The notes beneath the pieces were generated by a model. The model worked only from the letters and a program-made list of their open reading frames with translations, did not search any database and was not told where the DNA came from. Positions 2,989 through 56,886 of a stretch of DNA of 64,000 nt are shown here, piece after piece. Numbering within the stretch: the first letter of the stretch is position 1; each line of letters opens with the position of its first letter. Origin of the DNA: Bacillales bacterium (lineage in GTDB: Bacteria; Bacillota_I; Bacilli_A; Izemoplasmatales; UBA1188); contig JACKCW010000002.1 of assembly GCA_020633845.1 (NCBI GenBank), positions 14,332-78,331 on the forward strand. Direction: 5' to 3'. Position numbers and translations under genes: made by a program.

Positions 2989-3698
2989 ATATTTATTTTT
3001 ATCAAGTATTCTTGATTTCCTGAGCCGCCTTTAATCGGAGAGTCAATTACTTCGTCATAGGATAGGTTCAACGATTTCAGAAATGCTTTTATATCATTTA
3101 ATATAGATTTTTGAATATTTTTATCTTTTAAGACACCATTTTTCATATATATTTTTCCGGCTTCAAACTGTGGTTTTATCAGTGCGATAATAATAGTTTC
3201 TTTAAAGTTCTCCACGATTCGTTTTATAATAGGCTTTATTGAAGTAAAAGAAACGTCTATACAAATCAAGTCTATTTTAGGCAAGACAGTAAGGTTAAAA
3301 TCTAAGAAGTTTGTTTGTTCATATGATTTCACTCGAGAGTCTTCTTTTAATTTTTTATGAAGTTGATCGGTACCAACATCAATTGAATAAACAAGTTTGG
3401 CGCCGTTTTGAAGCAAACAATCAGTAAAACCGCCGGTCGAAGAACCTATATCAAGACATGAATATCCTTTTGGACTGATTTTATAAAAAGATAGGGCCTT
3501 TTCTAACTTTAGTCCTCCTTTAGAAACATATTTAAGCGCATCGTCTTTAACTGATACTATGTCACTATCGGATACAATAAACGAAGGTTTGTCAACAACA
3601 AGGCCATTAATTAAAACAAGGCCTTTTTTTATTGAATAAACAGCCTTGTTTCTTGATTCAAAATATTGGTTTTGTACCAAATAAATATCCAGCCTCAT
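2985..3698 (-). CDS. tlyA: TlyA-family rRNA (cytidine-2'-O)-methyltransferase (S4 domain plus FtsJ-like methyltransferase)
   Basis: N-terminus MRLDIYLV...SRNKA...I..G.V.ING (S4-like) and SAM motif LDIGSSTGGFTD. Confidence 0.85.
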   Translation of the reverse strand: MRLDIYLVQNQYFESRNKAVYSIKKGLVLINGLVVDKPSFIVSDSDIVSVKDDALKYVSKGGLKLEKALSFYKISPKGYSCLDIGSSTGGFTDCLLQNGAKLVYSIDVGTDQLHKKLKEDSRVKSYEQTNFLDFNLTVLPKIDLICIDVSFTSIKPIIKRIVENFKETIIIALIKPQFEAGKIYMKNGVLKDKNIQKSILNDIKAFLKSLNLSYDEVIDSPIKGGSGNQEYLIKINI

Positions 3699-40884: not shown

Positions 40885-41895
40885 TTATCTTGCGCCCTTA
40901 TCGTAAGGAATACCTTCCATCTTAGGTGCTCTAGATTTCTTAGATGTAAAGGCCAAGACAACCAAAGTAACAATATACGGAAGCATTTTGTAAATTGAGT
41001 CTCCAGTTCCTTGAGCAAGATTGGAAAATGAAGGAAGGAAGTCGATTCCAGAACTGTATTTTCCAAGAGCGTTAAAGAAAGCGAATATAAGGGCGGCTCC
41101 AAGAATATTTTGCGGTTTCCAGTTACCAAAAATCATAACGGCAAGAGCTAGGAACCCAAAACCGGCCACTCCGGCTCCCGGTGCTACCCCGGATGTCGCG
41201 ATAAAGGCCCACATAATACCGCCAAAACCAGCTAGAAGACCAGATAAACCGACACCAATATATCTTGTGGTATAAACACCGATTCCGGCAGATGCAGCCG
41301 CTTGCGGATGTTCGCCGCACGACATCAGTCTTAAACCAAATCTAGTTTTATATAACACGATAGTCGATATGATCCAGATAAGGATAGCGATTGGGGTAGT
41401 TATAGCAAATCCTTTAAACAAGAGAATTCCAAAGAATGAGTTTCTAAATTCTTCACTAAAGCCTAAATTAAAGGTAACCCAGTCATAGTTGAATAAAACT
41501 GTAGTAGAGCCGGCAGAACTAAATTCCGATTGAATAGATGATACTAAAAGGTAACAGAAGGCGGGAGCAAAAATATTTAAAGCCGTTCCGCCAATTGTCT
41601 GGTCGGCTTTCATGTGAATTGAGGCAAATGCGAGAAGCATCGAATAGATACAGCCAGAAAGGGCGGCTACTAAAACAGCAATTAAAACTGCCCATTGCCC
41701 GGCAACTTCACCAAAGCCGTTCATGTTAAATGCTCTTATCGTAAGAGCCCCGAAAGTCGCACCTACTATCATTGTTCCTTCAAGACCGATATTAATGGTT
41801 CCGCTTCTTTCAGTAAACATTCCTCCTAAAGCAACAACCACTAAACAAAGCGCATAAAGTAAGGTTGAATTAATTAAACCAGGAAGCAGCGTCAT
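40885..41895 (-). CDS. BMP-family (nucleoside) ABC transporter permease, NupQ-like
   Basis: A polytopic BPD_transp_2-type protein (GGMFTERSGTINIGLEG), the last gene of a lipoprotein-ATPase-permease-permease order. Confidence 0.8.
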   Translation of the reverse strand: MTLLPGLINSTLLYALCLVVVALGGMFTERSGTINIGLEGTMIVGATFGALTIRAFNMNGFGEVAGQWAVLIAVLVAALSGCIYSMLLAFASIHMKADQTIGGTALNIFAPAFCYLLVSSIQSEFSSAGSTTVLFNYDWVTFNLGFSEEFRNSFFGILLFKGFAITTPIAILIWIISTIVLYKTRFGLRLMSCGEHPQAAASAGIGVYTTRYIGVGLSGLLAGFGGIMWAFIATSGVAPGAGVAGFGFLALAVMIFGNWKPQNILGAALIFAFFNALGKYSSGIDFLPSFSNLAQGTGDSIYKMLPYIVTLVVLAFTSKKSRAPKMEGIPYDKGAR

Positions 41896-43118
41896 TGCTT
41901 CTCACCTCCTTTTATATCCGCTATAACAGGCGGTTTATTTAATATATTTGATTGGTTGGATATTGCTAGGTCTCTCTTTACCCGGCCTTTTAAAATTAAG
42001 TTGCGGAAGAAGAGTGAGAAAGCGCTGAAATAAATAATTGTCGATGTTATAACACTTACTATTTCAGTATTATAAACTGGTTGCAGATTATCGCCACCGA
42101 CCTTAAGGAAGGCAATAAATAACCCGCTGAAGATGACGCCTATCGGGTTGGATCCACCGAGAAGAGCCACTGAAATTCCGTCGAATCCGGCCTGTTGTAA
42201 TACTTCTTCGGTTTTATAAACCGCCCCATTATTACCGGTAAGGTAGTAAAGAGCGCCGCCGACACCGGCTAAAGCCCCCGCAACTACCATCGAAAGGATA
42301 ATGTTCTTCTTATCATTGATTCCGGCATATTTAGCAGCGTTTTTATTTAATCCGCATGCTTTAAGTTCATAGCCGAAAGTTGTTTTATATAGTATTACCC
42401 AAACCACTATCGCAAAAACAATAGCGACGATAATGCCGACTGATACGTTGTCGTTACCGGCAAATAAACTTGCAAGATTTAAACGCGAAAGAATAATCCC
42501 GTCGCCGGTAAGAGTTAATGTTCGACTGGAATCGGCGCCTAAAGACTGAATAGCTGGTGTATTATATACAAAAATATTCACAAGATAGAGACCAATCCAG
42601 TTTGTCATAATACATGTTATAACCTCGTTTATATTAAGATATGCCTTAAACAAACCAGGAATAGCGCCCCAGATAGCACCGGCTATAAGGGCCGCAAATA
42701 TCGAAACGTACCAAGGAAGATGTAACATTCCGGCACAAATTATTGCTGCTATTCCACCGAACAGATATTGTCCGGAAGCACCGATATTAAACAAACCGGT
42801 TTTAAACGCAAAAGCCACGGAAAGCCCGGTCATAATTAGAGGCATCGCATAATAAAGCACTTGACCGATATTATACTTAAGAGTAGTAAAGCGTCTTAAA
42901 TATTCCGAATAACTTGAAGGATTAGAAAGGCCTAAACTTAAGATCTTTTTCATTCCCCAACTTGCCGAACTGAATCGTCCGGTAATCGCGCTTACCGAGC
43001 TTGATTTAGTGGCGCTGTATGTGACGAGTAAAACAACAAAGGCCAGAATAAGACCGATTACGATACATAAAAGCGTCGCTACTATGGAAGATAATTTAGT
43101 CAGAGTTTTAGTTTTCAC
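41892..43118 (-). CDS. BMP-family (nucleoside) ABC transporter permease, NupP-like
   Basis: A polytopic protein (FNIGASGQY) that overlaps the downstream permease gene by 4 nt. Confidence 0.8.
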   Translation of the reverse strand: MKTKTLTKLSSIVATLLCIVIGLILAFVVLLVTYSATKSSSVSAITGRFSSASWGMKKILSLGLSNPSSYSEYLRRFTTLKYNIGQVLYYAMPLIMTGLSVAFAFKTGLFNIGASGQYLFGGIAAIICAGMLHLPWYVSIFAALIAGAIWGAIPGLFKAYLNINEVITCIMTNWIGLYLVNIFVYNTPAIQSLGADSSRTLTLTGDGIILSRLNLASLFAGNDNVSVGIIVAIVFAIVVWVILYKTTFGYELKACGLNKNAAKYAGINDKKNIILSMVVAGALAGVGGALYYLTGNNGAVYKTEEVLQQAGFDGISVALLGGSNPIGVIFSGLFIAFLKVGGDNLQPVYNTEIVSVITSTIIYFSAFSLFFRNLILKGRVKRDLAISNQSNILNKPPVIADIKGGEKQ

Positions 43119-44663
43119 TTACTTTTTTTCCTCCACATTTTGTCTTTTGGCGCCGGCCATGTAAAGGCCAAGTTCTTTAACATTAGTTTTCTTCGGATCG
43201 AATTCGCCGACGATTTCGCCTTCATACATCACAAGAATCCTGTCTGATACATCCATTACTTCATCAAGCTCTAAAGATATAAGGAGAATTGCCGATCCTT
43301 CATCTCTAACTTTGATTAATTGTTTATGAATATATTCAATAGCGCCGACATCAAGACCTCTTGTCGGCTGGACAGCGATAAGAAGAGGCGCATCATAATC
43401 AAGTTCTCTTGCAACAATAACTTTCTGCTGATTTCCGCCGGACATACTTCTAGCCATCGTATCACTGCCTTGACCAGACCTAATGTCATATTGTTTTATC
43501 AGTTCGTCCGAATAAGTCGCAATCTCTTTTTCCTTCATAAAACCGGCAGACTGAAACTTTTTTTCAAAATACTTTTTCATAACTAAGTTGTAAGAAAGAG
43601 GATAATCAAGGATTAAACCATACTTCTGTCTATCCTCGGGAATGTGTGCCATTCCTACTAAATTTCTTTCTCTGATGCTCATGTTTGTTATATCTTTACC
43701 GCGTAATTCTATATGACCTGAATCAACCTTCTCAAGACCGGAAAGGGCGTATGCCAGTTCGGTCTGACCATTTCCTTCAATCCCGGCAATACAAAGTATT
43801 TCTCCGGCATGAACAGAAAACGAGATGTTGTTATTAACCATTTTTTTATTTAATTTGGACTTAACACAGAGATTATCAACTTTTAAAACAGTATCTTTAG
43901 GCTCTGCTTTCTTTTTATCAACAGTAAAGGAAACTTTTCTTCCTACCATCATTTCCGCAAGTTTTTCTTTGGTAGTATTCTTAACATTGACTGTCGCCAC
44001 ATGTTTGCCTTTTCTAAGAACAGTAACTCTGTCGGCAACCGCCATTATTTCGTTCAACTTGTGAGATATAAAAAGAATAGATTTTCCTTCTTTGGCGAAG
44101 TTTCTCATTATTTCCATCAGCTCGTCTATCTCTTGTGGAGTTAAAACAGCTGTCGGTTCATCAAAAATAAGAATATCCGATGATCGGTAGAGCATTTTTA
44201 GTATTTCCACTCTTTGTTGCATACCTACCGAAATATCCTGAACTTTCGCATCCGGATCAATCTTTAAACCATATTTTTCGGAAAGATCCATTACTTTTTT
44301 GCGGGCTTTTTTTCTATCAACGAAGATTCCGCCCTTCATTGGCTCCGAACCCAAAATAATATTATCCAGAACCGTAAATATATCAACTAATTTGAAATGT
44401 TGATGGACCATGCCTATTCCAAGGTTGGTCGCATCGTTCGGGTCATTTATCTTTACTTCTTTCCCGTCTTTTTTGATAATACCCTTTTCCGGCTGATAAA
44501 GACCGAAAAGAACGCTCATGAGAGTCGATTTTCCGGCGCCGTTTTCTCCTAAAAGAGCATGTATTTCTCCCTTTTTTAATTGAAGAGAAATATTATCGTT
44601 AGCAATGATGCCTGGGAAGGACTTTGTAATATTTAACATCTCGATTACATAGTTTTCTTCCAT
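43119..44663 (-). CDS. Duplicated-domain ABC ATPase of the BMP/nucleoside transporter, NupO-like
   Basis: Two nucleotide-binding domains: GENGAGKST, the degenerate signature VGMQQRVE and ILIFDEPTA in the first; SGGNQQKV plus a degenerate Walker A in the second. Confidence 0.85.
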   Translation of the reverse strand: MEENYVIEMLNITKSFPGIIANDNISLQLKKGEIHALLGENGAGKSTLMSVLFGLYQPEKGIIKKDGKEVKINDPNDATNLGIGMVHQHFKLVDIFTVLDNIILGSEPMKGGIFVDRKKARKKVMDLSEKYGLKIDPDAKVQDISVGMQQRVEILKMLYRSSDILIFDEPTAVLTPQEIDELMEIMRNFAKEGKSILFISHKLNEIMAVADRVTVLRKGKHVATVNVKNTTKEKLAEMMVGRKVSFTVDKKKAEPKDTVLKVDNLCVKSKLNKKMVNNNISFSVHAGEILCIAGIEGNGQTELAYALSGLEKVDSGHIELRGKDITNMSIRERNLVGMAHIPEDRQKYGLILDYPLSYNLVMKKYFEKKFQSAGFMKEKEIATYSDELIKQYDIRSGQGSDTMARSMSGGNQQKVIVARELDYDAPLLIAVQPTRGLDVGAIEYIHKQLIKVRDEGSAILLISLELDEVMDVSDRILVMYEGEIVGEFDPKKTNVKELGLYMAGAKRQNVEEKK

Positions 44664-44684
44664 ATTTGCCTCCTTTTTGTAAAT

Positions 44685-44714
44685 AAGGTCATCACGCTTT
44701 CACGCGATGACCTT
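44685..44714 (-). promoter_or_regulatory. Intercistronic stem-loop between the lipoprotein gene and the ATPase gene
   Basis: A 12-bp stem (AAGGUCAUCGCG/CGUGAUGACCUU, one G-U pair) with a hexaloop and no U-run. It looks like an mRNA-stabilising or partial-termination element. Confidence 0.5.
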
Positions 44715-44736
44715 ATATTGATATTAATTTTTAATA

Positions 44737-46308
44737 CTATGCGTTGTAATCAACAGTAACGTGAGTTAAACCAGCAGGAACAGCAGCAGTCGAATTGTTA
44801 ACAACAACTGAACCATCCTTTAGTGATGCAAATAAAGTGTTATATTCAGCAACTGTGAAAGTAGTGAGTCTCCAAGAAGATTCAGAAGTAGGAAGTCCTA
44901 CGCAGTCTTCAGCAGCGCCAAGAGTTAAAGTAATACCGGCATGATCAACATCCCAAGCACCATCATTGTCATAGAAAGAAGTAAGAGCTTGATAAGTTGA
45001 TTCAACAAGTTTCTTTTCGGCAGAAGTGATAATTCTATCAGATTCAGCAGATTGGTCAACGTCGACACCGATTACTTTTCCCGAAGTTGTAGCTTCAGCA
45101 GCAGCAACTACAGAAAGGTAAATTCCGCCTCCGCAAGAGAATACAACTTCAGTTCCGGCAGCGTACCATGCATCCATCTTAGTCTTAAGATCGGCAGATG
45201 GAGAGAAAGTACCAGCGTAATTATATTTTATTGTAACGTTAACGTTTTTAGCAACAGCGGCAGCTTCAGCTCCCTGAACATACCCATAACCATATCTTAC
45301 AACGGCCGGAACACTCATTCCACCGATGAATCCAAGTTTAGTATATCCTTCCATAACGGCAGCATATCCAGCTAAATAACCAGCTTGTTCTTCTTGATAT
45401 AATATGCAGCAAGTATTTGCAGCAGTATAGTAAGTTGCATAGTCAGCAGTATGAGGTTCTCCATCAAGTAATAAGAATGCTACATCAGGGTATTGACTCT
45501 GAAGGTTATAAATAGCCTCTTCAAATAAGTATCCTGGGCAAACGACAACATCAGCACCAGCAGCGATAGCGGCTTTGATTGAAACTTCACGAGCGGCTGT
45601 AGAGTCCTCGTTTGGACGCCAATACGCATAAGTAAGATTATTTTCTTCAGCATATTTGATAACGCCGTTCCAAGCTCCTTCGTTGAATGATTTATCATCA
45701 ATATTTCCAACGTCAGTAACAAGAGCGATATCAATTTCAGTTACAGGAACAAGACCCATAGCTTTAGTGCCGTCTTCAAGTTCAGCATAAACTACATAGT
45801 AAGTTCCGGCTTCAAGAGCACCAGGGTTGTCTCCCCAAGTTCCTTCTCCGTCAGTAGCAGTTTCCTGATAAGGAGGTAAATAAAGAGTATCAGGTGTTAA
45901 ATTGTCAATAGCGCCAGATTCTTTATTTTGTGCCCAGAAATCGATAGTATCAGGATCGCCAATAGCGGTTCTTACAACCTTAACAGCTAAATTTCCGTTG
46001 AATGTAACAACTTCGCCGTCAATTTTGTATTCAAAAGACCAGCCAGCATCGGTAGCCGGAAGAACAACTTGAAGAATGTATAAAGCGGTAGCACCTTTGA
46101 GTTCAGCTTTAATTGATGCAACTCTTTCGTCGTTAATAGCGATAGCAGTCATCTTGTAAGTTTCATCTCCAACCGCCGTTCCCCAACCATTGAATTGTCC
46201 TACTGCATAGTAGTCTTTTTCAGCATTCTCAAGGATAGTTCCGGCACATCCTGCAAGAAGCAAAGTAGAGCAGGCAAGCAACAGTAATGCAAAAATTCTT
46301 TTCATCAT
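44737..46308 (-). CDS. BMP-family (PnrA/NupN-like) substrate-binding lipoprotein with an extra ~170-aa N-terminal CBM-like domain
   Basis: Lipobox LLLAGC. The C-terminal two thirds are BMP-like (LVTDVGNIDDKSFNEGAWNG...GVDVDQ). The N-terminal domain has GQFNGW ... FEYKIDGE motifs. Confidence 0.8.
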   Translation of the reverse strand: MMKRIFALLLLACSTLLLAGCAGTILENAEKDYYAVGQFNGWGTAVGDETYKMTAIAINDERVASIKAELKGATALYILQVVLPATDAGWSFEYKIDGEVVTFNGNLAVKVVRTAIGDPDTIDFWAQNKESGAIDNLTPDTLYLPPYQETATDGEGTWGDNPGALEAGTYYVVYAELEDGTKAMGLVPVTEIDIALVTDVGNIDDKSFNEGAWNGVIKYAEENNLTYAYWRPNEDSTAAREVSIKAAIAAGADVVVCPGYLFEEAIYNLQSQYPDVAFLLLDGEPHTADYATYYTAANTCCILYQEEQAGYLAGYAAVMEGYTKLGFIGGMSVPAVVRYGYGYVQGAEAAAVAKNVNVTIKYNYAGTFSPSADLKTKMDAWYAAGTEVVFSCGGGIYLSVVAAAEATTSGKVIGVDVDQSAESDRIITSAEKKLVESTYQALTSFYDNDGAWDVDHAGITLTLGAAEDCVGLPTSESSWRLTTFTVAEYNTLFASLKDGSVVVNNSTAAVPAGLTHVTVDYNA

Positions 46309-46326
46309 TTCTCCTTTTTATGTCTT

Positions 46327-46372
46327 GCGTTTTGAAAACGCTTTCTATATACATTAATAACGCAAATGTCTA
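46327..46372 (-). promoter_or_regulatory. Candidate promoter (TAGACA-17-TATAGA) overlapped by the dyad GCGTTTTGAAAACGC and a cre-like TGAAAACGCTTTCT site
   Basis: A perfect 7-1-7 palindrome at 46327..46341. The 14-mer at 46333..46346 matches the CcpA cre consensus TGWAANCGNTNWCA at 13 of 14 positions. Confidence 0.4.
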
Positions 46373-46448
46373 GAAAAAACAAGAAAAAAGTCTAGAAACA
46401 ATGTAGTTGCTCAAATATTTATAAAAATAGAGAAGTTCATTCGTTTAT

Positions 46449-47021
46449 TTATGCACTAATTATAATCAGTCCCATGGCTTTATATGTACTGAATTCAGCA
46501 TAAACGAGATAATAAGTCCCATCTTCAAGAGCACCAGGGTTGTCTCCCCAAGTTCCTTCTCCGTCAGTGGCAGTTTCCTGATAAGGAGGCATATAAAGAG
46601 TATCCGGTGTTAAATTGGTAATAGCTCCAGATTCTTTATTTTGTGCCCAGAAATCGATAGTATCAGGATCGTCTTTGGCAGTTCTAACAACTTTAATGGC
46701 TTGGTTTCCGTCGAAAGTAACGGTTTCGCCATCAATTTTGTACTCAAATGTCCAGCCAGCTCCTTCTCCCTGAAGGGCAACCTGAAGTACATAAACGGCA
46801 GTAGCACCTTTAAGTTCAGCTTTAATTGATGCAACTCTTTCGTCGTTAATAGCGATAGCAGTCATCTTGTAAGTTTCATCTCCAACCGCCGTTCCCCAAC
46901 CATTGAATTGTCCTACTGCATAGTAGTCTTTTTCAGCATTCTCAAGGATAGTTCCGGCACATCCTGCAAGAAGCAAAGTAGAGCAGGCAAGCAACAGTAA
47001 TGCAAAAATTCTTTTCATCAT
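46449..47021 (-). CDS. Stand-alone CBM-like domain lipoprotein (copy 2, a chimera made by the tandem duplication)
   Basis: Its first 75 codons match the BMP lipoprotein gene at the DNA level except for one synonymous SNP, and its last ~150 codons are identical to copy 3. Lipobox LLLAGC. Confidence 0.7.
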   Translation of the reverse strand: MMKRIFALLLLACSTLLLAGCAGTILENAEKDYYAVGQFNGWGTAVGDETYKMTAIAINDERVASIKAELKGATAVYVLQVALQGEGAGWTFEYKIDGETVTFDGNQAIKVVRTAKDDPDTIDFWAQNKESGAITNLTPDTLYMPPYQETATDGEGTWGDNPGALEDGTYYLVYAEFSTYKAMGLIIISA

Positions 47022-47039
47022 TTCTCCTTTTTATGTCTT

Positions 47040-47085
47040 GCGTTTTGAAAACGCTTTCTATATACATTAATAACGCAAATGTCTA
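47040..47085 (-). promoter_or_regulatory. Second identical copy of the promoter/dyad/cre-like element (within the repeat)
   Basis: Identical sequence shifted by 713 bp, with the cre-like 14-mer at 47046..47059. Confidence 0.4.
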
Positions 47086-47161
47086 GAAAAAACAAGAAAA
47101 AAGTCTAGAAACAATGTAGTTGCTCAAATATTTATAAAAATAGAGAAGTTCATTCGTTTAT

Positions 47162-47767
47162 TTATGCACTAATTATAATCAGTCCCATGGCTTTATATGT
47201 ACTGAATTCAGCATAAACGAGATAATAAGTCCCATCTTCAAGAGCACCAGGGTTGTCTCCCCAAGTTCCTTCTCCGTCAGTGGCAGTTTCCTGATAAGGA
47301 GGCATATAAAGAGTATCCGGTGTTAAATTGGTAATAGCTCCAGATTCTTTATTTTGTGCCCAGAAATCGATAGTATCAGGATCGTCTTTGGCAGTTCTAA
47401 CAACTTTAATGGCTTGGTTTCCGTCGAAAGTAACGGTTTCGCCATCAATTTTGTACTCAAATGTCCAGCCAGCTCCTTCTCCCTGAAGGGCAACCTGAAG
47501 TACATAAACGGCAGTAGCACCTTTAAGTTCAGCTTTAATTGATGCAACTCTTTCGTCGTTAATAGCGATAGCAGTCATCTTGTAAGTTTCATCTCCAACC
47601 GCCGTTTCCCAACCATTGAATTGTCCTACTGCATAGTAGTCTTTTAATTCATTTTCAAGAACAACTTCATTATATGGATCATCTGTTGTTCCGCCTAAAA
47701 TAAAATCACAGCCGGAAAGTAAAAATGTGCAAATAAAAGCAAATAAAATCATAAATATTTTTTTCAT
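47162..47767 (-). CDS. Stand-alone CBM-like domain lipoprotein (copy 3, with its own signal peptide)
   Basis: Start MKKIFMILFAFICTFLLSGC (AAGGTGA SD), with the same GQFNGW...FEYKIDGE domain. The ORF-track start at 47788 is probably too far upstream. Confidence 0.7.
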   Translation of the reverse strand: MKKIFMILFAFICTFLLSGCDFILGGTTDDPYNEVVLENELKDYYAVGQFNGWETAVGDETYKMTAIAINDERVASIKAELKGATAVYVLQVALQGEGAGWTFEYKIDGETVTFDGNQAIKVVRTAKDDPDTIDFWAQNKESGAITNLTPDTLYMPPYQETATDGEGTWGDNPGALEDGTYYLVYAEFSTYKAMGLIIISA

Positions 47768-47810
47768 TATTTCACCTTGATGTAGCACTCGTTGTAATAT
47801 AGTTTAATGA

Positions 47811-48578
47811 TTACGCTTTAATTAGTTTATTTTTCGCCTTTATATCTTTAAGAATAAAAGGAAGATGAATTAATCCTTCAAGAGTAAAAGCCAATAATAC
47901 ATACTTAATAATATACATAACATACCCTTGATTAAGGTTTAAATACGGAAGACCATCGATTGGCGCATCGGCCGTAAAACAGAAATTATAGTACGAACCC
48001 CCGGTTGATAACATCGAGTTCATATAAATTGAACCGATAAAAACGGCAAGAAGAATTAAAATAGTGTGTCCTAGATCTACGGCATGAATATCAACATACT
48101 TGTAAACCACAATCGAAAGACCGAATGTTAAAAGACAAGCATGATAGATGAAATATTCATATGCTAGATAAGACGTAAATGAACACGACGAGATAGTAAC
48201 AATAAATACCGGAAGTATACCACTAAAAACACCTGTCGCAAAAACAAAGGCTAAAAGTGTGTGTCTCACATTCTCTTTTTTAGTTAATAAAGCCGCTAAA
48301 ATAAAAAACGGTTGGATAGAACAAAGTTGAAAAGGAAGGCCGAGTTTGCTTAATATGTAATGCCCGGTTTCTTCATAAGTCATTTGTATGAAATACGCAT
48401 ATTTCATTAATTCGGAAACTAAAGAAACACAAAGCATTATTATCATCAAAGTTTTAAGTGACGGTTTGAATTTTCCGATTAATACCATCCCCGAGACCGC
48501 GATAACAAAAACAATGCCGATCCAAAGTAAATGAGCTCCTCCATAAGCTCCGTCTGTCAGTAATAAATTGATTTGCAT
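47811..48578 (-). CDS. Polytopic membrane protein (YwaF/TMEM164-like?)
   Basis: About seven TM helices and an LPFQLCS motif reminiscent of the YwaF family. I prefer the start MQINLL. Confidence 0.45.
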   Translation of the reverse strand: MQINLLLTDGAYGGAHLLWIGIVFVIAVSGMVLIGKFKPSLKTLMIIMLCVSLVSELMKYAYFIQMTYEETGHYILSKLGLPFQLCSIQPFFILAALLTKKENVRHTLLAFVFATGVFSGILPVFIVTISSCSFTSYLAYEYFIYHACLLTFGLSIVVYKYVDIHAVDLGHTILILLAVFIGSIYMNSMLSTGGSYYNFCFTADAPIDGLPYLNLNQGYVMYIIKYVLLAFTLEGLIHLPFILKDIKAKNKLIKA

Positions 48579-48672
48579 ATGAACCCCCATAGTAAATATT
48601 CACATAGTTAGAATTCTATCACAACTAGAATAAAGAGTGAACACAAAAAAAGAAAAGACCGCCGAAACGGTC

Positions 48673-50289
48673 TTATCTGAGTATAACTGAGGTATGAGGA
48701 GCGATTGTCAGAATCGATCCGGAAAGGGTCGCATCTCCACTTCCGATGACAGCTGCAATAAATGTAAAGTTGAAGTCGGTTCCTTTTGAGAGATCAATTG
48801 TCAAAGTCGTAGAATAGGAAGTATTGTGAAATACACCCACCGTTCTTCCCTCATATGTAGAAAGAAAACCGCCAAAAGTTGTATAGTTCGCAAAATTAAG
48901 GGCAGTGTATTCGCCTAAAGCTATTTCCGGGTTGCATTTTCTAATAATAAGCAATTTTTTATAGTAGTTATAAAGGCTTGTCTTATCCTTCTTCTGTTCT
49001 TTAACTGTTCCGTTTGTCTGAAGCGAAGAATCATAAGTGGCACCGACAGGATCTTCAACCGTATCGTTATCGCCCCAAAGCATAGCCAGTCTCCGGTTGG
49101 CATCGGTGTTTTCGGTGCCTCTTGAACCTTTCATGCCAATCTCTTCGCCATAATAGATAAATGGCGTACCATAGGTCAAAATGTAAAGGTTGGCCGCCAT
49201 TTGCATTTCGCCTTCCTTAATTGATAAGTAGCCGGCAGCTCTATTCATATCGTGGTTAGATATAAAAGGGGTAAGAATTGCATCAGGATTAACTATTTCC
49301 ACCGAGTTTCTGTACTGTGATAAGTAACTAACATAACTGTTTACGCTTTCGTATTGTTTAGCGCAACTAGTAATAGCGCCATCGCTTCCAGACATCCCGA
49401 AATCAAAACAACTTATTGCCTCATAGTAGGAGGCAATTTCGCCGTCATTTGACCAATCTTCTCCGACTAAATAATAGTCATCGCTATATTTTTGGCATTC
49501 GCTGTCGACCCATTTTAGAAATTCAATATTTTTAGCATCGTCGCCGAGATAAAAATATTTGACAGCATCTAAGCGAAATCCGTATACTCCGACATCTTCC
49601 ATCCAGTATCTAATGATTTCGGATATTTCCGCTTTAACATCCTCGTTATCAAGATTAAGTTCCGGCATGCTGCGATCAAAATTTGCTTCATAGTAATAAC
49701 CATTTGAAAGAGCATAGTATGTTTTTCCGGTTTCTTCTTGATCTTCAGTGACTATTGAATAATAACTTATATACTTGTTTGAATAATCGCCTTCGCTTAT
49801 CGCCTTTGATGCTGTTTTAAACCAAGCGTTTAATGTCGATGTATGGTTAAGAACAAGGTCGATAATAACGTGCATATTTCTATCGTTGCATTCATTAACA
49901 AGATTAATCATATCTTCATTAGTTCCATAGGAACTATCAACACTCATATAATCAATCACATCATATTTATGATAGCTTCCAGCCTTCATTATCGGCATCA
50001 ACCATATACCGTCAACACCAAGGGATTTGCCGCTTGAAGGGTCGCCGTCATTCAGATAATCAAGACGGTTAATAAGACCATTGATATCACCGATTCCGTC
50101 CCCGTCGGAGTCGCTATAGGCTCCGACGAAGATTTCATAGTAAACGGAATTATTCCCGGTATCGTAAACAATTTCAGAACCATTACTATCGGTCAGAAAA
50201 GTATAATCGGTTATCTTTATTTCTCCGCAGCCGGATAAAAAGAGGATAAAAAGAATTAAGAGTGGAAGGATTAAAAATTTCTTTTTCAT
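48673..50289 (-). CDS. GH13 alpha-amylase-family lipoprotein
   Basis: Lipobox LFLSGC plus GH13 regions DLVLNHTS, GFRLDAVKY, VGEDW and FISNHD. Confidence 0.88.
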   Translation of the reverse strand: MKKKFLILPLLILFILFLSGCGEIKITDYTFLTDSNGSEIVYDTGNNSVYYEIFVGAYSDSDGDGIGDINGLINRLDYLNDGDPSSGKSLGVDGIWLMPIMKAGSYHKYDVIDYMSVDSSYGTNEDMINLVNECNDRNMHVIIDLVLNHTSTLNAWFKTASKAISEGDYSNKYISYYSIVTEDQEETGKTYYALSNGYYYEANFDRSMPELNLDNEDVKAEISEIIRYWMEDVGVYGFRLDAVKYFYLGDDAKNIEFLKWVDSECQKYSDDYYLVGEDWSNDGEIASYYEAISCFDFGMSGSDGAITSCAKQYESVNSYVSYLSQYRNSVEIVNPDAILTPFISNHDMNRAAGYLSIKEGEMQMAANLYILTYGTPFIYYGEEIGMKGSRGTENTDANRRLAMLWGDNDTVEDPVGATYDSSLQTNGTVKEQKKDKTSLYNYYKKLLIIRKCNPEIALGEYTALNFANYTTFGGFLSTYEGRTVGVFHNTSYSTTLTIDLSKGTDFNFTFIAAVIGSGDATLSGSILTIAPHTSVILR

Positions 50290-51195
50290 CTATTTGACAG
50301 ATCCGGCTGTCACTCCTTCGATATAGTATTTCTGCATCGAAAGGAAGAGGGTTACAATCGGTACGGCAACGCAGGTACAGCCTGCGCAGAACACCGTAAA
50401 GTTGTTGGAATCCACTCTGTTTCCATAAAGCATATCGTAAAGTCCGACTGCAACCGTCAGTAATTCTTTGTTTTCGACGCCAAGAATGACTCTTGCGAAA
50501 ATGAAGTCCATCCAAGGGCCGGTAAAAGACAATAAAGCCGTATAAATAATTATCGGTTTGGATAAAGGTAAAATTATTTTAAAGAATACCTGGGCATTAG
50601 TCGCTCCGTCTAGCCTAGCTGATTCGATTAAGGAATCTGGTATAACATCAAAGAATCCTTTTGCAATATAGAATCCAAGACCGGCACCGGCCGAATTAAC
50701 AAGAATGAGGGCAAAAAGCGATTGCGTAAGGTGCATTGACTTTAATATGTAATAAACGGCTATCATACTCATAAAACCAGGGAAAAGGCCGAGTATCATC
50801 GCAAATCTCAAGTAGGTTCTTCTCCAGCTAAATTTAATTTTACTCATTACATAAGCTACGCAAAGAGTGAAAATAGTGGAAATGATACAAGAGAAAGTTG
50901 AGACAAAGAGAGTATTTAAAAACCAAGTCGGAAAATAAGTTTCGGTAAATAGTATTTTGAAATTCTCGAAACCGAATCCAGTCGGCCAATAATTGGACAC
51001 GACGATACCGATTAAATTTCCGGAATCGTTATATTCGACACGAAAAGCGTTTAAAACTATCCATAGGATAGGATATAACCAAATGACCGAAAGTAGAATT
51101 AAAACGATGTAGGCAAGAGCGTTGGATATTCTTTGTTGTGTTTTGTAACTCTTGCTTCTTTTATTGAGACTAATCACATTATCATGTTTAATCAT
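50290..51195 (-). CDS. malG: Maltose/maltodextrin ABC transporter permease (MalG-like)
   Basis: EAA loop ESARLDGATNAQVFFKIILPLSKP. Confidence 0.8.
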   Translation of the reverse strand: MIKHDNVISLNKRSKSYKTQQRISNALAYIVLILLSVIWLYPILWIVLNAFRVEYNDSGNLIGIVVSNYWPTGFGFENFKILFTETYFPTWFLNTLFVSTFSCIISTIFTLCVAYVMSKIKFSWRRTYLRFAMILGLFPGFMSMIAVYYILKSMHLTQSLFALILVNSAGAGLGFYIAKGFFDVIPDSLIESARLDGATNAQVFFKIILPLSKPIIIYTALLSFTGPWMDFIFARVILGVENKELLTVAVGLYDMLYGNRVDSNNFTVFCAGCTCVAVPIVTLFLSMQKYYIEGVTAGSVK

Positions 51196-52580
51196 TGGAA
51201 AGCATCCTCCTGTTTAAACGCCTTGGAGCGGGAATAGAAAATAAGCGTGATAGATGCGGTAATTATGAAGGTCATTATCGAAATTACGGCCCCCATATTA
51301 TACTCGTTTTCATCAATAGTCAGTTTGTATAACCAAGTAACCAAGAGGTCTGTTTCGCCGGCTTTGAAGCCTGGATTAGTCGGGCCGCCGCCGGTAAGCA
51401 GGTAAATGATATTGAAACTCGTTATATTACCGACAAATGAACTGATTAAATACGGAGTAGTTACAAACAGAATATAAGGGAAGGTTATTTTCCAGAATGT
51501 CTGTCTTCTTGTTGCTCCGTCAACCGTTGCGGCTTCATATAGATCCTTTGGGATATTCATCAGGATACCCGATGTTTGAAGCATAGTATAAGGTATTCCT
51601 ATCCAAAGGTTAATTAAAAGAACCATGCCTCTCGCCGTAAATTCATTTGCGGCCTGATCTAAAAATTCCACCGGTGAGGCTAAAATACCCAGTTTTACCA
51701 GTAGTGTATTAACGGGTCCCAAATTACCCAATATTTTTCTTACAGCTAGAAGTGTAATAAACTGTGGAAGAGCGATAGTGAGAATAAAAATAGTTCTCCA
51801 TAAAACCTTAGCTTTAATTCCGCGTTTATTAATTAGTATACCCAAAAATATACCTAAGAAATAGTTAGAGAAAGTGGCGATAAAGGCCCAAACAAAAGTC
51901 CATCCTAAAACCGGAAAAAACATAGTTCCGATTTCTGATGCCGAACCGTTAAATATTTGGGCAAAATTGGAAAATCCGACCCAGTCAACCAAATTCTGAC
52001 CGGTATGAAGACTATCATAATTAGTGAATGCGATTAAAATCATAAAGATAGTCGGAAGTAAAGTAAAGATGAGAATGCCGACCATTGCCGGAATCATCAT
52101 GGTAAGATGGAATTTGGAATCGGTAAGATCGTGTAAATCTTCCTTAAAATTGGAAACCTTCTTTCCTTCCTTAAGCAGCATATCATTATGGTATGAACTT
52201 TTGGTGTTCGATACATATAATGCGAGATAAAGGAATGTAATTCCTATCATGAGTACTCCAAAAAGGAGCATCAGCATTGAATTATCGGCAGCGGTATTAA
52301 TGTCTCCGGGATTATCTCCAAGAGTTATAAGATTAGCAAAGGCTTTATATCCAAATGGAGTTGAATTTATTTCCGGGCATAGAACCATCAGTAAAACAAA
52401 ACCGACCTGGCATACCAAGAAAATCATGCCCTTCCAAATCTGTCCTCTCGCCAGGTTTCCGAATCCCATAATCAGATAAGATATTTTGGTATAAATCGAA
52501 CCGCGAACAAATCTGTCATAAAAATTCTTGAAACCTTTTCCGATCTTTTTGAAGACATTTGGTTTTTTCTTTTTTGTCAT
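51192..52580 (-). CDS. malF: Maltose/maltodextrin ABC transporter permease (MalF-like)
   Basis: EAA loop EAATVDGATRRQTFWKITFP; 462 aa. Confidence 0.8.
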   Translation of the reverse strand: MTKKKKPNVFKKIGKGFKNFYDRFVRGSIYTKISYLIMGFGNLARGQIWKGMIFLVCQVGFVLLMVLCPEINSTPFGYKAFANLITLGDNPGDINTAADNSMLMLLFGVLMIGITFLYLALYVSNTKSSYHNDMLLKEGKKVSNFKEDLHDLTDSKFHLTMMIPAMVGILIFTLLPTIFMILIAFTNYDSLHTGQNLVDWVGFSNFAQIFNGSASEIGTMFFPVLGWTFVWAFIATFSNYFLGIFLGILINKRGIKAKVLWRTIFILTIALPQFITLLAVRKILGNLGPVNTLLVKLGILASPVEFLDQAANEFTARGMVLLINLWIGIPYTMLQTSGILMNIPKDLYEAATVDGATRRQTFWKITFPYILFVTTPYLISSFVGNITSFNIIYLLTGGGPTNPGFKAGETDLLVTWLYKLTIDENEYNMGAVISIMTFIITASITLIFYSRSKAFKQEDAFQ

Positions 52581-52638
52581 AAATATCTCCTTAAAAGCGA
52601 AAAAAGCAGGGATCTGCTTTTTTCTTAATTTTGTCTAA

Positions 52639-53997
52639 TTAGTTTTGTGCTCCGGTTTTCCAAATTGTTTCACATGTCTGAAGACAACTTAGAATTGATG
52701 CATCGTCCGGATAAGCGTTATCCGTATTTTTAAGCATAGCGTAGATAAGATCCGGTGCGCCTTTAGAATAAAACCATGTGTTATATTTTTGAACATAACC
52801 AAACGGCTGAGCGATTCCGTAATTAAACATCTCTATTTCGCAGGAGGCAAGTTTAGCTGCTAAAGTGTCGGCGCTCATTGCTGCAAATTCATCAGCGGCG
52901 TTTTTATATGCCGGCAGGTTTGCGCAAGTTTCAAATGACTGTTCCTGAACGCTAACGCTTGAAAGATAAATGAGAATGTCTTCAAGATATGCTTGATAGT
53001 CGCTGCCTTTTTTCATAACAAAGCATTTGCAGTCGGTGAAAGTGCCGCTTTGATAAACAGTTCCGGCAGCAATTGTTCCGTATGCATCAGCATTAGTTAT
53101 AGTAAATTCCGGCAGAACGGCGATTCCAAGATTACTGCCAAGAGCGGCTAGAGCAGCATTGTAGTTCCATGCGCCGCCGATTAAGCACAGCGAGTATTCG
53201 TCTTTCAGTTCTTCTTCCCATCCGGATGATCCGGCTTGGTCAATACCGCCGCTTGTAAGTTGGAAATATCTTCTTCCCCATTTCATTGCGGCTATTGTGT
53301 CGTCACCTGTCGCATAGCATGCTGAGGCTACACCATTTTCATAAAGTTGAACGCTAGTTGTAAGTTCATTAGAAGAATTATAGTATTCGGACAAAAGCAA
53401 GAATGAATTATTGTATCCGTCAGTTCCGAGGATGGTTGCGGCTTTTACTTCGTGCCCGACTGTACTGCTATAAGCGATCGCTTTAGCGGAAATTCCTTCC
53501 CAAGTTTGTACATCTTCAGCGGTTAAAACGCTGGAATTATAATATAAAACTAAAGATTGAGACACATATGGAACGGCAAAATAATAAGTAGTTCCGTCGA
53601 CGGTCGATTTAGATACATCGAGGAAAGTCTGAGGATTGTCGGCTTCCATTTGTGCAATTAAAGCTTGATTGGTAATGGCGGCAATTGAAGATGACCCGGC
53701 GGTTAATTTACCCAAATTATCATGAGGAATAGTGAAAATGTCTGGTCCCGCTTCCGTATCATCTAAGAATTGTGCCGCAGCGGCTCCGCTGTCGACTCCT
53801 TTTACTACTATCTCAGAAGGGAAGTTTTCATCGTGTGTCGCATTATAATTCTCGACATAGTCATCAACCATTTGCTGATAGAATTCCTGAGATTCGGTTC
53901 CAACCCAAATCGTCAAGCTTTTCTTACCGCAAGCAGTTAATGAAAACGCTAACATCAATACTAATGCCAGTGACAGTAACTGTGCTATCTTTTTCAT
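52639..53997 (-). CDS. malE: Maltodextrin-binding lipoprotein (MalE/MdxE-like)
   Basis: Lipobox SLTACG, SBP family 1-like sequence, and the first gene of the operon. Confidence 0.75.
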   Translation of the reverse strand: MKKIAQLLSLALVLMLAFSLTACGKKSLTIWVGTESQEFYQQMVDDYVENYNATHDENFPSEIVVKGVDSGAAAAQFLDDTEAGPDIFTIPHDNLGKLTAGSSSIAAITNQALIAQMEADNPQTFLDVSKSTVDGTTYYFAVPYVSQSLVLYYNSSVLTAEDVQTWEGISAKAIAYSSTVGHEVKAATILGTDGYNNSFLLLSEYYNSSNELTTSVQLYENGVASACYATGDDTIAAMKWGRRYFQLTSGGIDQAGSSGWEEELKDEYSLCLIGGAWNYNAALAALGSNLGIAVLPEFTITNADAYGTIAAGTVYQSGTFTDCKCFVMKKGSDYQAYLEDILIYLSSVSVQEQSFETCANLPAYKNAADEFAAMSADTLAAKLASCEIEMFNYGIAQPFGYVQKYNTWFYSKGAPDLIYAMLKNTDNAYPDDASILSCLQTCETIWKTGAQN

Positions 53998-54207: not shown

Positions 54208-56886
54208 ATGAGAAAGAACATTACAAAAGTTTTTCTGCTTTTTGTGTTGTTGCTTCCTTTTGTCCTTGTCGGATGCACAAAAACGACAGCGACAAGTAGT
54301 CCGACAACTGTTAGCACCGAACCTTTTGACGGTGCCTATGTATATTTACACTATTACCGTTATCAAGCCGATTACAGTGACTGGGATCTTTGGGGTTGGG
54401 CATATAAACCGGTAGGGAAAGACGGAGCGGCCTATAGTTTTACTGAGGACAACACTGAAGACTCTTATGGCGGCGTTGTTTGTTCCATACCTTTAAGCGG
54501 CGATCTTGAAGGATGTACACAAATCGGTTTTATTATTAGAAAAGGAGGAGATAGTTGGACGGATAAAGACATTTCTTCCGATCGTTATATAATCATTCCT
54601 GACGATATATCTAAAGACAATCCTCTTAATGTATACGTTATTGAGAACGAAGCGGAATTCGGATATTCCTTAGAAGAAGCTCCGGATAAAACAGAGAAAT
54701 TTACCAGCGCCTATTTCTCTGATACCAATAAAATCTATATAAGCGCAACCGGAACCATAGCCAAATCTTCTTTGGAATTATATAAAAATGATTCGGAGGT
54801 CGCAATAGCGGAAACCACCCTTGCGATAAACGGATTCTCCGGAACTATTACAATCGGGGAAAATGTTGATTATAATGCGGTTTATACCTTAAAAGGTACT
54901 TTTTCGGTACAACAAACCATTAACGTTACCTTCCAAGGCCTCTATGATAATGAAGGTTTTATTGAAGCGTTTGCCTACGACGGAGACGATCTCGGGGCAA
55001 TTGTTCAAAACGACGGATCGACTACCTTTAGAGTTTGGGCCCCGGTTTCTTCTTCGGTTAAACTCAACTTATACAGCACCGGCACTATCCTTGCGGACAG
55101 CACCGCAGGACACATTGGAACCGATACTCCGACTGAAACAATTGATATGACAAAATCAGTTAAAGGAACCTGGTACTATGAAAGCACAGAAAATCTTCAT
55201 GGTACCTATTATACTTACTCTGTAACAAATGGAAACAGCACTAATGAAGTTGTTGACCCTTATGCCAAAAGTTGCGGTTTGAATGGGGAAAGAGGGTTAG
55301 TGGTTGATTTTTCCGAGACAAACCCGGATGGGTGGAATTATGATGAAAGAGCGAATTCAGTGGTTGATTATACCGATTCTATAATTTATGAAATGCATGT
55401 CAGAGATTTTTCTATTGATGATACTTGGGATGGAGACAGTTCTTTAAAAGGCACATATTTAGCCTTGGCCGAAACTGGAACCACTTATGACTCCTATACT
55501 ACCGGTTTCGATCATTTAAAAGAAATGGGCGTCACCTCGGTACAAATCCTTCCATTCTTTGATTGGAGTGACGGAGTAGATGAGAGCCAAATGGACAGCG
55601 AGACATCAAAAAAATACAGTTGGGGTTATATGCCTTTAAACTATAACTGTCTAGAAGGCAGTTACTCTAGCGATCCTTGGGACGGTTTATCCAGGATTAC
55701 CGAATTTAAAGAGGTAGTAATGGCTTATACCGCCGCCGGCATTAGAATTAATATGGATGTTGTTTATAACCATACCGCACAGTCAGGCGATTCTAATTTC
55801 AATCTTATCGTCCCCGGCTATTATTACCGATTAACTACTGACGGAGCCTTCTCAAATGGTTCCGGATGTGGAAACGAAACCGCGAGCGAAAGATATATGA
55901 TGAGAAAATTTATTTTAGATTCTACCGAATTCTGGGCTACCGAATACAACATATCTGGTTTCCGTTTCGATCTTATGGGTCTTGAAGATATCGAAACCAT
56001 GAATGAGGTCAGTGCTAATCTTCACTCCATCGATTCAACCATTACTGTTTACGGCGAACCTTGGACCGGAGGGACTTCTACTCTTGCAAGCAGCGACCAA
56101 GCAATTAAAACACATATGTCAGAATTAACCGGGGTTGCCGCTTTCAACGATAATTTCCGCAATGGCGTTAAAGGCAGTGTATTTGATGCGGAAGCCGGCG
56201 GCTATGTCGAAGGCGTTTCTTCTTCGTCCGTTATAAGTGCCGTTAAAAACGGCATCCTAGGCAAGTTTTCGGAAACAAACGGAAATCCTTCTCAAGTTAT
56301 TAACTATGTCGCTTGCCATGATAATAATACTCTTCACGATAAACTGGTACAAGCTTGTCCTGATGCCACTGATAGAGAAATACTTACAATGGCCAAACAA
56401 GCTTACTCTTTTGTCTTATTGTCGCAGGGTATCAGTTTTATTCATGCCGGAGACGAATTCCTAAGAGCCAAAGTAAAATCAGACGGAACCTATGATTCCA
56501 ATAGTTATAATTCCGGAGACGAAGTAAATGGTATTGACTGGAGTTTAAAGGAAACCAATATTGAACTATGTGATTATATTGAATACTTAATCTCTTTTAG
56601 AAATGAACATACCTCATTTAAACTAGATACTAACGAAGAGGTTTCCGCGTCCATTACCTTCTTAGAAACTACCGGAAGTGTTATAGCTTATACCATTAAC
56701 AACAGTGTTTCTAATGATTCCTATGGAACTATTCTTGTGATATTTAGCAATGTCGGCACTACTTTCGCTTTGCCGACCGGCGCCGATTGGAATTTATGCG
56801 GAGAAGTGACTGTTCAACAGATTTTTGCGGGCGGCAGTCCAATCAATCTCCAAGCTAACGAAACATATGTTTTCTATCACAGTTAA
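54208..56886 (+). CDS. pulA: Type I pullulanase lipoprotein (CBM41 + CBM48 + GH13)
   Basis: Lipobox VLVGC, CBM41-like YLHYYRYQADYSDWDLWGW, CBM48 TTFRVWAP, and GH13 regions VVYNHT, GFRFDLMG, YGEPW and ACHDN. Confidence 0.9.
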   Translation: MRKNITKVFLLFVLLLPFVLVGCTKTTATSSPTTVSTEPFDGAYVYLHYYRYQADYSDWDLWGWAYKPVGKDGAAYSFTEDNTEDSYGGVVCSIPLSGDLEGCTQIGFIIRKGGDSWTDKDISSDRYIIIPDDISKDNPLNVYVIENEAEFGYSLEEAPDKTEKFTSAYFSDTNKIYISATGTIAKSSLELYKNDSEVAIAETTLAINGFSGTITIGENVDYNAVYTLKGTFSVQQTINVTFQGLYDNEGFIEAFAYDGDDLGAIVQNDGSTTFRVWAPVSSSVKLNLYSTGTILADSTAGHIGTDTPTETIDMTKSVKGTWYYESTENLHGTYYTYSVTNGNSTNEVVDPYAKSCGLNGERGLVVDFSETNPDGWNYDERANSVVDYTDSIIYEMHVRDFSIDDTWDGDSSLKGTYLALAETGTTYDSYTTGFDHLKEMGVTSVQILPFFDWSDGVDESQMDSETSKKYSWGYMPLNYNCLEGSYSSDPWDGLSRITEFKEVVMAYTAAGIRINMDVVYNHTAQSGDSNFNLIVPGYYYRLTTDGAFSNGSGCGNETASERYMMRKFILDSTEFWATEYNISGFRFDLMGLEDIETMNEVSANLHSIDSTITVYGEPWTGGTSTLASSDQAIKTHMSELTGVAAFNDNFRNGVKGSVFDAEAGGYVEGVSSSSVISAVKNGILGKFSETNGNPSQVINYVACHDNNTLHDKLVQACPDATDREILTMAKQAYSFVLLSQGISFIHAGDEFLRAKVKSDGTYDSNSYNSGDEVNGIDWSLKETNIELCDYIEYLISFRNEHTSFKLDTNEEVSASITFLETTGSVIAYTINNSVSNDSYGTILVIFSNVGTTFALPTGADWNLCGEVTVQQIFAGGSPINLQANETYVFYHS

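Follow-up and report, generated by a model that had tools for sequence, protein, structure and literature searches.

Three neighbouring genes on the minus strand of contig JACKCW010000002.1 (assembly GCA_020633845.1, positions 14,332 to 78,331; this whole stretch of 64,000 nucleotides (nt) is referred to as the window) raise the question of what a group of lipoproteins is doing at the end of a starch-utilization locus, and how one of them came to be fused to the binding protein of another transporter. The three genes (47767-47162, 47021-46449, and 46308-44737) have in common a domain of about 165 amino acids, here called X. The first two code for standalone X lipoproteins, and in the third X is followed by a substrate-binding domain of the BMP/PnrA type. 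The shared domain and its motifs had been pointed out in an earlier note on this DNA, and a hidden Markov model (HMM) of X confirms them: its matches in all six frames of the window correspond to exactly three copies, with E about 1e-68, which is far beyond chance. Over the shared part, identity to the fusion protein is 86% and 78% for the two standalone proteins. All three begin with a signal peptide and a lipobox (FLLSGC in copy 3, at 47767-47162; LLLAGC in copy 2 and in copy 1, the fusion gene), in agreement with the pattern [LVI][ASTVI][GAS]C, and the cysteine is invariant across the family alignment. The reading preferred here, with a probability of roughly 0.55, is that X would be a new SusE/F-like alpha-glucan-binding surface lipoprotein module.

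Genomic surroundings and family of X

The strongest evidence for the role of X is its genomic context. With the window proteins as queries, 39 loci were compared from GTDB species representatives, the hosts being mostly Candidatus Izemoplasmatales, Acholeplasmataceae, 'Mycoplasmatota', and old 'Bacillales bacterium UBA' metagenome-assembled genomes (MAGs), with a few Oscillospiraceae and Bianqueaceae. A GH13 amylase gene lies directly upstream of X in 30 of the 39 loci (median gap 188 nt); malE and malG are upstream too in 26 of those 30, and a divergent pullulanase is also present in 23 loci. For two of the nine exceptions, the DNA available upstream is too short for a judgement. The same gene order has been found in metagenome contigs whose X relatives are only 49-55% identical, and the most distant standalone X (P0038) adjoins a MalK-like ATPase and a pullulanase. 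Another example is a divergent subfamily of proteins of ~330 amino acids, in which X is combined with a carbohydrate-binding module (CBM) and which belongs to alpha-glucan loci in two of the three contexts examined. Conversely, a BMP operon next door has been found in none of the 39 species-level loci, which indicates that the starch-locus position of X is ancestral and its association with BMP local. Like the surface glycan-binding proteins of the SusE/F type, X is a non-catalytic lipoprotein encoded inside a glycan utilization locus.

The domain partners of X lead in the same direction. Among about 90 multidomain X representatives, the commonest Pfam partners are SusF_SusE (15), X25 (7), CBM26 (2), and PUD (2), and the sole further glycan-specific partner is one CBM_4_9; together with the gene order, they support the link to alpha-glucans that had been proposed from the window alone. 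In the ~330-amino-acid proteins, the C-terminal domain matches SusF_SusE, X25, and AMPK1_CBM. X is also present in cohesin/dockerin proteins, and in two Ser/Thr kinases (P0150 and P0165) it is the portion outside the membrane; both are positions typical of binding modules. Within lipoproteins it may be N-terminal, internal, or distal C-terminal, and this variable position fits a module rather than a fixed stalk.

A word-indexed search returned 38 relatives, almost all of them standalone lipoproteins of ~190 amino acids without any Pfam domain, and all those carrying a source name are called 'hypothetical protein'; an exhaustive profile search found X in 236 cluster representatives at 50% identity, 179 of them at E<=1e-10. 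The standalone form is the commonest and ancestral architecture, it has no catalytic domain of its own, and 40-60% identity is kept across orders. The lipobox is also found in nearly all X relatives. Literature searches gave no description of the X domain, and none of Izemoplasma starch loci. Surface glycan-binding lipoproteins of starch loci are a known kind of component, but this family, with its fold, its range of hosts, and its ABC binding-protein fusions, is undescribed in the libraries and literature searched.

According to the mechanism proposed, X would ancestrally be the last gene of an alpha-glucan locus consisting of a divergent pullulanase, malE-malF-malG, a lipoprotein GH13 amylase, and X, as found in wall-less/Mollicutes-related Bacilli (Izemoplasmatales, Acholeplasmataceae) and some Clostridia. 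The hosts are mostly without a wall, so that their lipoproteins would constitute the cell surface, where the lipid-anchored X would grip starch, glycogen, or maltodextrin chains. The predicted contact is a conserved aromatic surface formed by W42, W90, W125, Y143, Y147, and W158 together with K110, many of these residues being in or near an ordered loop. In this way, X would keep the polymer beside the CBM-less amylase and the MalE binding protein. Its role would equal that of SusE and SusF in Bacteroides, with a fold that is different and much elaborated. Starch utilization in the Bacteroidota has surface lipoproteins of the SusE/F kind, which bind glycans, as a defining feature, and Mollicutes-related wall-less Bacilli are common in marine sediments, bioreactors, and guts; to our knowledge, no SusE/F equivalent has been described for them. 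The locus is carried by two cultured bacteria with complete genomes, Mycoplasmatota strain zrk7 (CP076021, near 1.43 Mb) and Izemoplasma sp. B36 (NZ_CP168077, near 1.91 Mb), which makes genetics and physiology feasible, and X could serve as a useful marker of alpha-glucan loci in these genomes.

Predicted fold and distant likenesses

The structure of X was predicted by AlphaFold2 with a predicted local distance difference test score (pLDDT) of 93.1 for the full protein, and with a pLDDT of 97.7 and a predicted TM-score of 0.92 for the mature domain. About nine strands make up the predicted all-beta fold, together with a short helical insert and an ordered loop of ~30 residues; as modelled, X is a discrete autonomous beta-sandwich module of ~165 residues. 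The family alignment is rich in aromatic residues, which make up at least 90% of nine positions, and one lysine is near-invariant. Most of the conserved residues (the six aromatic ones and K110 named above) are found where strands end or within the conserved loop, which has the sequence N-L-T-P-x-T-L-x-x-P...G-x-W-x-x-N-P.

Several results weigh against a role of X in alpha-glucan binding. A Pfam and NCBIfam scan of the three window proteins gave no match to X, and Pfam searched at E<=10 with 60 diverse X domains gave nothing recurrent, the lone match to a CBM model being to CBM53 at 0.094. As positive controls, the same library recognized CBM_48 in the window pullulanase (E 2e-8) and SusF_SusE, X25, and AMPK1_CBM (P0115, 0.0017) in C-terminal domains of X-containing proteins. 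Foldseek searches with two models against PDB and BFVD found no significant neighbour, the best PDB match having E 0.18-0.33, TM 0.1, and root-mean-square deviation (RMSD) ~15 Å. An hhalign alignment of X with the co-occurring SusE/X25-like C-terminal domains is collinear over both ends (probability 21-32%), and it is no better than a block-shuffle control in which 20 of 150 shuffles reached the real score; homology of X to these domains is therefore not claimed. X on GH13 or on any other glycoside hydrolase was found in none of 150 representatives (~90 of them multidomain), unlike classical starch CBMs, and X consequently stands outside the CAZy definition of a CBM as a module within carbohydrate-active enzymes. 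Other partners of X, namely RCC1, leucine-rich repeats of the BspA type (LRR_5), Flg_new, and beta-helix, have no starch link, and X is also fused to ABC binding proteins of four unrelated families (Bmp, SBP_bac_5, Peripla_BP_6, and SBP_bac_8), usually directly N-terminal to them. Where X accompanies a CBM, a canonical starch-binding module is already in the protein, so that X need not bind starch there. Finally, a terminator-like hairpin with a T-run directly 3' of the amylase stop (48674-48655, minus strand) parts the amylase from the X genes of the window.

These searches also bear on the CBM48/CBM20-like class to which X had been assigned in the earlier note on the basis of its G-x-F-N-x-W and Y-K-x-x-x-D-G patterns. 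Like X, CBM48/AMPK-beta and CBM20 are beta-sandwiches with a G-x-F-N-x-W strand and a near-invariant tryptophan, W42 in X, the counterpart of which contacts glycogen in AMPK-beta. However, Pfam CBM_48, AMPK1_CBM, and CBM_20 all miss the 60 X domains at E<=10, with no CBM model beyond the single CBM53 match, and the CBM48 models (PF02922 and PF16561) also miss the three window proteins at E<=1. The CBM20 entry 7czj appears in Foldseek at E 2.1 with TM 0.16/0.29, and no PDB neighbour reaches the TM > 0.5 of a common fold, the best being SusE at 0.39. In addition, X lacks the GH13 fusions of these modules, and the lysine of the Y-K-x-x-x-D-G pattern is not conserved across the X family. The likeness in G-x-F-N-x-W is one beta-strand motif, and the CBM48/CBM20 label should be dropped; the label preferred here is 'SusE/F-like in role, unclassified in fold'.

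All of the weak similarities point the same way, to the starch-binding domains of SusE/SusF. In both Foldseek runs against PDB, SusE with alpha-cyclodextrin scores highest in TM and in probability (4fem_A, TMq 0.39, probability 0.20; not significant). A broad X profile, searched against PDB sequences at E<=10, has SusF as its sole match (E 0.83, and 0.83-1.4 across profiles; not significant), in which the strand Y-Y-v-v-G-x-F-x-G-W of X falls on the first strand of each of three SusF starch-binding domains. Two other candidates were rejected: rotavirus VP8*, top-ranked in Foldseek, was dismissed at TM 0.11-0.14 and RMSD 13-15 Å, and PDB sequence matches to transthyretin (E 0.2-1.5) were gone with the broader profile. 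A distant kinship of X to modules of the SusE/F/X25 type is possible, although unproven.

X resembles SusE/SusF of Bacteroides thetaiotaomicron (4fem, 4fe9; PF16411) in setting. These proteins are also non-catalytic, lipid-anchored, and encoded in an alpha-glucan locus by a surface amylase and an importer; their all-beta modules start with a Y-Y-x-V-G-x-F-x-x-W strand motif, and SusE/SusF-like modules are the commonest fusion partners of X as well as its best Foldseek match by TM-score and its sole PDB sequence match. On the other hand, X has ~165 rather than ~100-110 amino acids, with an inserted helix, an extra hairpin, and the ~30-residue ordered loop; the profile E value of about 1 and the TM of 0.39 are not significant, and Pfam gives no match. 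The hosts of X are Gram-positive-derived, mostly wall-less Bacilli that have an ABC importer and not SusCD, and starch binding by X is predicted only. Another comparison is with the X25/CBM26 starch-adherence proteins, such as Ruminococcus bromii Sas20 and the amylosome (PMC9112005), which are likewise non-catalytic and serve Gram-positive surface starch capture. X co-occurs with X25, CBM26, and cohesin/dockerin but matches none of these models, and it is mostly anchored through a lipobox and not through dockerin or sortase.

Competing explanations for X

In the main rival explanation, which is less probable than the preferred reading, X would not bind glycans at all and would instead serve as a rigid pedestal or as a docking domain for proteins, raising or arranging surface proteins on the membrane. 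Standalone X would attach non-covalently to the amylase, to MalE, or to the transporter, and the fused form would carry substrate-binding proteins (SBPs) or CBMs covalently. X does lie within ~5-20 residues N-terminal of unrelated SBPs (Bmp, Peripla_BP_6 twice, and SBP_bac_5) and N-terminal of the SusE/X25-like CBMs in the ~330-amino-acid lipoproteins, it stands in for the flexible tether of BMP in the fusion, and both its lack of glycoside hydrolase fusions and its lack of significant similarity to any CBM would be expected of such a domain. The N-terminal Ig-like domains of SusE/F, which are non-binding, offer a parallel. Another model for this explanation is DUF1735, an all-beta lipoprotein domain of unknown function associated with polysaccharide utilization loci (PULs), for which the role of a membrane-bound spacer has been suggested in Bacteroidota PULs (PMC11216935); it has no sequence relationship to X, and X is mostly a standalone or distal module. 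What speaks against a pedestal is the commonest and ancestral form of X, which carries nothing and yet keeps its 40-60% identity across orders. Moreover, in long lipoproteins X frequently comes last, as the distal C-terminal domain (P0048, P0057, P0046, and P0063), and in kinases it is the ectodomain, neither of which is the position of a spacer. Its most conserved part is the long, ordered, aromatic-rich loop, which would be more usual in a ligand or interface site than in a stalk.

The preferred reading, X as a SusE/F-like alpha-glucan-binding module, has also a bolder form, in which X would be the founder of a new alpha-glucan CBM family with a fold new to PDB, defining a 'Sus-like' capture system in wall-less Bacilli, and the repeated, independent SBP fusions would be a general strategy to tether nutrient-binding proteins (for nucleosides, amino acids, peptides, or sugars) to polysaccharide particles and thereby to place uptake at the site of detritus breakdown. 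So wide a claim is doubtful at present. As a candidate for a new CBM family, X is nevertheless well defined and easily testable, with a confident predicted fold and an unusually tight link to malEFG, amylase, and pullulanase.

Alternatively, X could be a general adhesion or binding module for a ligand other than alpha-glucan, for example a detritus polymer, a glycan of the host or matrix, or a small molecule; it would then be in the starch locus because attachment to particles is co-regulated. The wide range of partners, which besides LRR_5/BspA, RCC1, and Flg_new includes SH3, Big, CBM_4_9, kinases, and SBPs for amino acids and peptides, is in favour of this explanation, as are the minority of X loci without mal genes nearby (L037, L047, L050, and P0179) and one locus, L013, that retains the X-BMP fusion away from starch genes. 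Still, alpha-glucan proteins are the sole recurrent specific association in both gene order and partners, and a different ligand is accordingly judged improbable.

The X-BMP fusion and the repeat array

In the fusion protein, X (residues ~25-190) is joined to the BMP domain by a short linker, MGLVPVTEIDIALV. The C-terminal part scores 127.6 bits with Pfam Bmp (PF02608; cut-off 24.1), so that the fusion of X to a BMP/PnrA substrate-binding protein reported in the earlier note holds (E 6e-37). Its C-terminal 330 residues are a normal member of the PnrA/BmpD/NupN family, with the customary two-cassette ATPase and pair of permeases encoded downstream, the difference being the extra folded module of 165 amino acids between the lipid anchor and the binding domain. 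The best PDB relatives of the BMP part are Lbp (7x0r), a pneumococcal lipoprotein (6y9u/6yab), TmpC/PnrA (2fqw), and BmpD (6shu), with BmpA also among them, and the D-x-S-F-N and G-V-D-x-D-Q stretches are conserved in the alignment to 7x0r.

The fusion is real, rare, and, as far as the gene orders compared indicate, limited to a small clade in which a BMP operon adjoins. It is conserved in five clusters of X-BMP proteins, which are 53-75% identical to the window protein and account for 5 of the 120 listed BMP relatives; a sixth listed relative (P0189) has a Flg_new repeat in place of X, and nearly all the others are unfused lipoproteins of 353-429 amino acids, 65-72% identical over the BMP part. 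The arrangement is malFG-amylase-X-[X-BMP] in L010 and L011, malEFG-amylase-[X-BMP]-ABC in L012 and L057, and [X-BMP]-ABC without mal genes nearby in L013. The simplest history would be that a BMP operon landed 3' of the starch locus and that an in-frame fusion later joined X to the mature BMP protein, exchanging the flexible tether of BMP for X, with nucleosides still the most likely ligand. This fits the suggestion, made earlier, that X had been recruited onto and next to an unrelated transporter, since the starch position is ancestral and the fusion is found only in the small BMP-adjacent clade. The fusion seems to have been kept through divergence down to 53% identity and through a move away from the mal genes. 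Independent fusions to other binding-protein families were also observed, in lipoproteins of 810-1916 amino acids in which X is joined to SBP_bac_5, Peripla_BP_6 (twice), and SBP_bac_8 (P0060, P0062, P0077, and P0069).

A further explanation, which had been raised in the same note, is that the BMP part has switched to a starch-derived sugar, the fusion coupling glucan capture to its own uptake. The fusion gene does come after the starch locus, and BMP is related to the sugar-binding Peripla_BP_4 (a weak match, E 1.9e-6, below the cut-off). This is very improbable, however, given the 65-72% identity to very many unfused BMP orthologues in unrelated contexts, the dedicated MalEFG importer already in the locus, the persistence of the fusion without mal genes in L013, and the closest solved relatives (PnrA, BmpD, and BmpA), which bind nucleosides, as shown by ligand data for BmpD/PnrA (PMC7093131). 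The BMP part is most likely an ordinary nucleoside binder, to judge from its sequence.

The X genes of the window form a repeat with a period of 713 nt, as found by a repeat search and in-register comparison; this period is above the 500-nt limit of Tandem Repeats Finder. Copy 3 and copy 2 differ by one mismatch from about codon 30 through the stop and the downstream spacer, and copy 2 and the fusion gene also differ at a single position over the spacer, the signal peptide, and the initial ~70 codons, beyond which their nucleotide identity is ~80%. By its sequence, the middle gene is a chimera, with its 5' end from the fusion gene and its 3' end and spacer from copy 3, which is the expected product of a very recent unequal crossover between two older paralogues. 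The fusion X and the standalone X, compared over codons 71-176, have a synonymous divergence (dS) of 0.55 and a nonsynonymous to synonymous ratio (dN/dS) of 0.19, indicating that both cores are old and under purifying selection. In a sibling contig (L056, 85-90% nucleotide identity), which has TMEM164, one standalone X, and X-BMP (1520-3124), the X cores are reciprocally swapped: its fusion has the standalone core type of the window and its standalone gene the fusion type. Recombination, or concerted evolution, between adjacent free and fused X paralogues is, on these comparisons, ongoing, and the swapping of cores argues that X does the same job in both. The SBP fusions and this natural exchange show X acting as a portable module. 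Two tandem X domains directly after the amylase have been observed in several Izemoplasmatales (L035, L036, L039, and L043; about 8001-9053 in L035 and L036), and proteins with two or three X repeats also occur (P0039 and P0040), so that expansion of X copy number is recurrent at the post-amylase position.

That the fusion or the tandem copies are artefacts of MAG assembly or gene calling is scarcely credible: the window does match a MAG contig and holds a near-perfect repeat that short-read assemblers can mis-join, but the fusion is a continuous open reading frame (ORF) found again in six independent assemblies at 53-90% identity, for which reason an artefact is rejected for it, the copies have distinct ends (copy 3 differs in its signal peptide and copy 1 in its diverged core), and assemblers usually collapse repeats rather than expand them. 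Only the exact number of standalone copies, two or one, stays doubtful (L056 has one).

The features of the locus are collected in Table 1. The malEFG genes, lipoprotein amylase, membrane protein, and divergent pullulanase listed as neighbours in the earlier note were all found again from ORFs and library scans. Copy 3 codes for 201 amino acids if translated from the ATG at 47767 (ribosome-binding site AAGGTGA) or 208 from a GTG at 47788, and the product of copy 2 is identical to the NCBI MAG protein H6687_02215, annotated as 'hypothetical protein'.

Table 1. Features of the X locus and its neighbours in the window.
Feature	Position	Strand	Basis and remarks
BMP-type transporter: ABC ATPase (two cassettes) and two permeases	40885..44663	-	Downstream of the fusion gene; served by the fusion protein
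Fusion lipoprotein, BMP/PnrA-type substrate-binding domain	44737..45738	-	Pfam Bmp PF02608, residues 196-475, E 6e-37
Fusion lipoprotein (523 amino acids), signal peptide, lipobox, and X, residues 1-190	45739..46308	-	HMM
140-nt spacer 5' of the fusion gene	46309..46448	-	Sequence identical to the other spacer; same palindrome at 46326-46342; with copy 2, forms the 713-nt repeat unit
Standalone X lipoprotein, copy 2 (190 amino acids), chimera	46449..47021	-	Sequence comparison with copy 3 and the fusion gene
140-nt spacer 5' of copy 2	47022..47161	-	Palindrome TGCGTTTTGAAAACGCT at 47039-47055, cre-like (a single mismatch to WTGNNARCGNWWWCAW)
Standalone X lipoprotein, copy 3	47162..47767	-	Own signal peptide MKKIFMILFAFICTFLLSGC and an extra linker of ~20 amino acids; HMM E 5e-68
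TMEM164-like/TP0381-type integral membrane protein	47811..48590	-	Between the amylase and X
Lipoprotein GH13 alpha-amylase, without recognizable CBM	48673..50289	-	Library scan
malG, malF, malE (lipoprotein SBP), maltodextrin ABC importer	50290..53997	-	ORF reading and library scan
Divergent lipoprotein pullulanase	54208..56886	+	PUD, CBM48, GH13, and an all-beta domain

Regarding transcription, copy 3 begins only 22 nt after the stop of the TMEM164-like gene, and copy 2 and the fusion gene each lie behind the same 140-nt spacer. With the hairpin after the amylase, these spacers make co-transcription of X with malEFG, as supposed in the earlier note, its weak point. Sites resembling the catabolite-responsive element (cre; consensus WTGNNARCGNWWWCAW) include a perfect one at 53940-53955, inside the 5' end of malE, and one with a single mismatch before each X gene (47807-47822, 47045-47060, and 46332-46347), the latter two overlapping the 17-nt palindrome of the spacers. 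The window has 16 one-mismatch matches (7.5 +/- 2.7 expected), and these sites are compatible with carbon-catabolite control, without being specific to it or to starch genes. The spacer palindrome was also searched for across the window as an operator common to the malE and pulA promoters, and no further close copies were found. Between the X-BMP gene and the ABC ATPase gene, a strong hairpin without a clear T-run, AAGGTCATCGCGTGAAAGCGTGATGACCTT, can be read from the sequence at 44668-44720 (minus strand); this arrangement is common where more binding protein than transporter is made.

Some neighbouring genes complete the description. The TMEM164-like gene, which belongs to a putative acyltransferase family, is present in the sibling contig L056 and missing from this place in the other ~50 related loci. 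Beyond the pullulanase, two minus-strand genes (59190-60758 and 57829-59187) appear, from sequence alone, to code one for a GH20 hexosaminidase-like protein and the other for a membrane-anchored metallophosphoesterase-like protein. Finally, a PotABCD-like ABC operon has been found at 7378-11516 on the minus strand, the binding protein of which also matches Pfam Lipoprotein_8 (the Mycoplasma MG045 family), and this match is consistent with a Mollicutes-related (Izemoplasmatales/Acholeplasmatales-like) origin of a contig labelled 'Bacillales bacterium' by NCBI.

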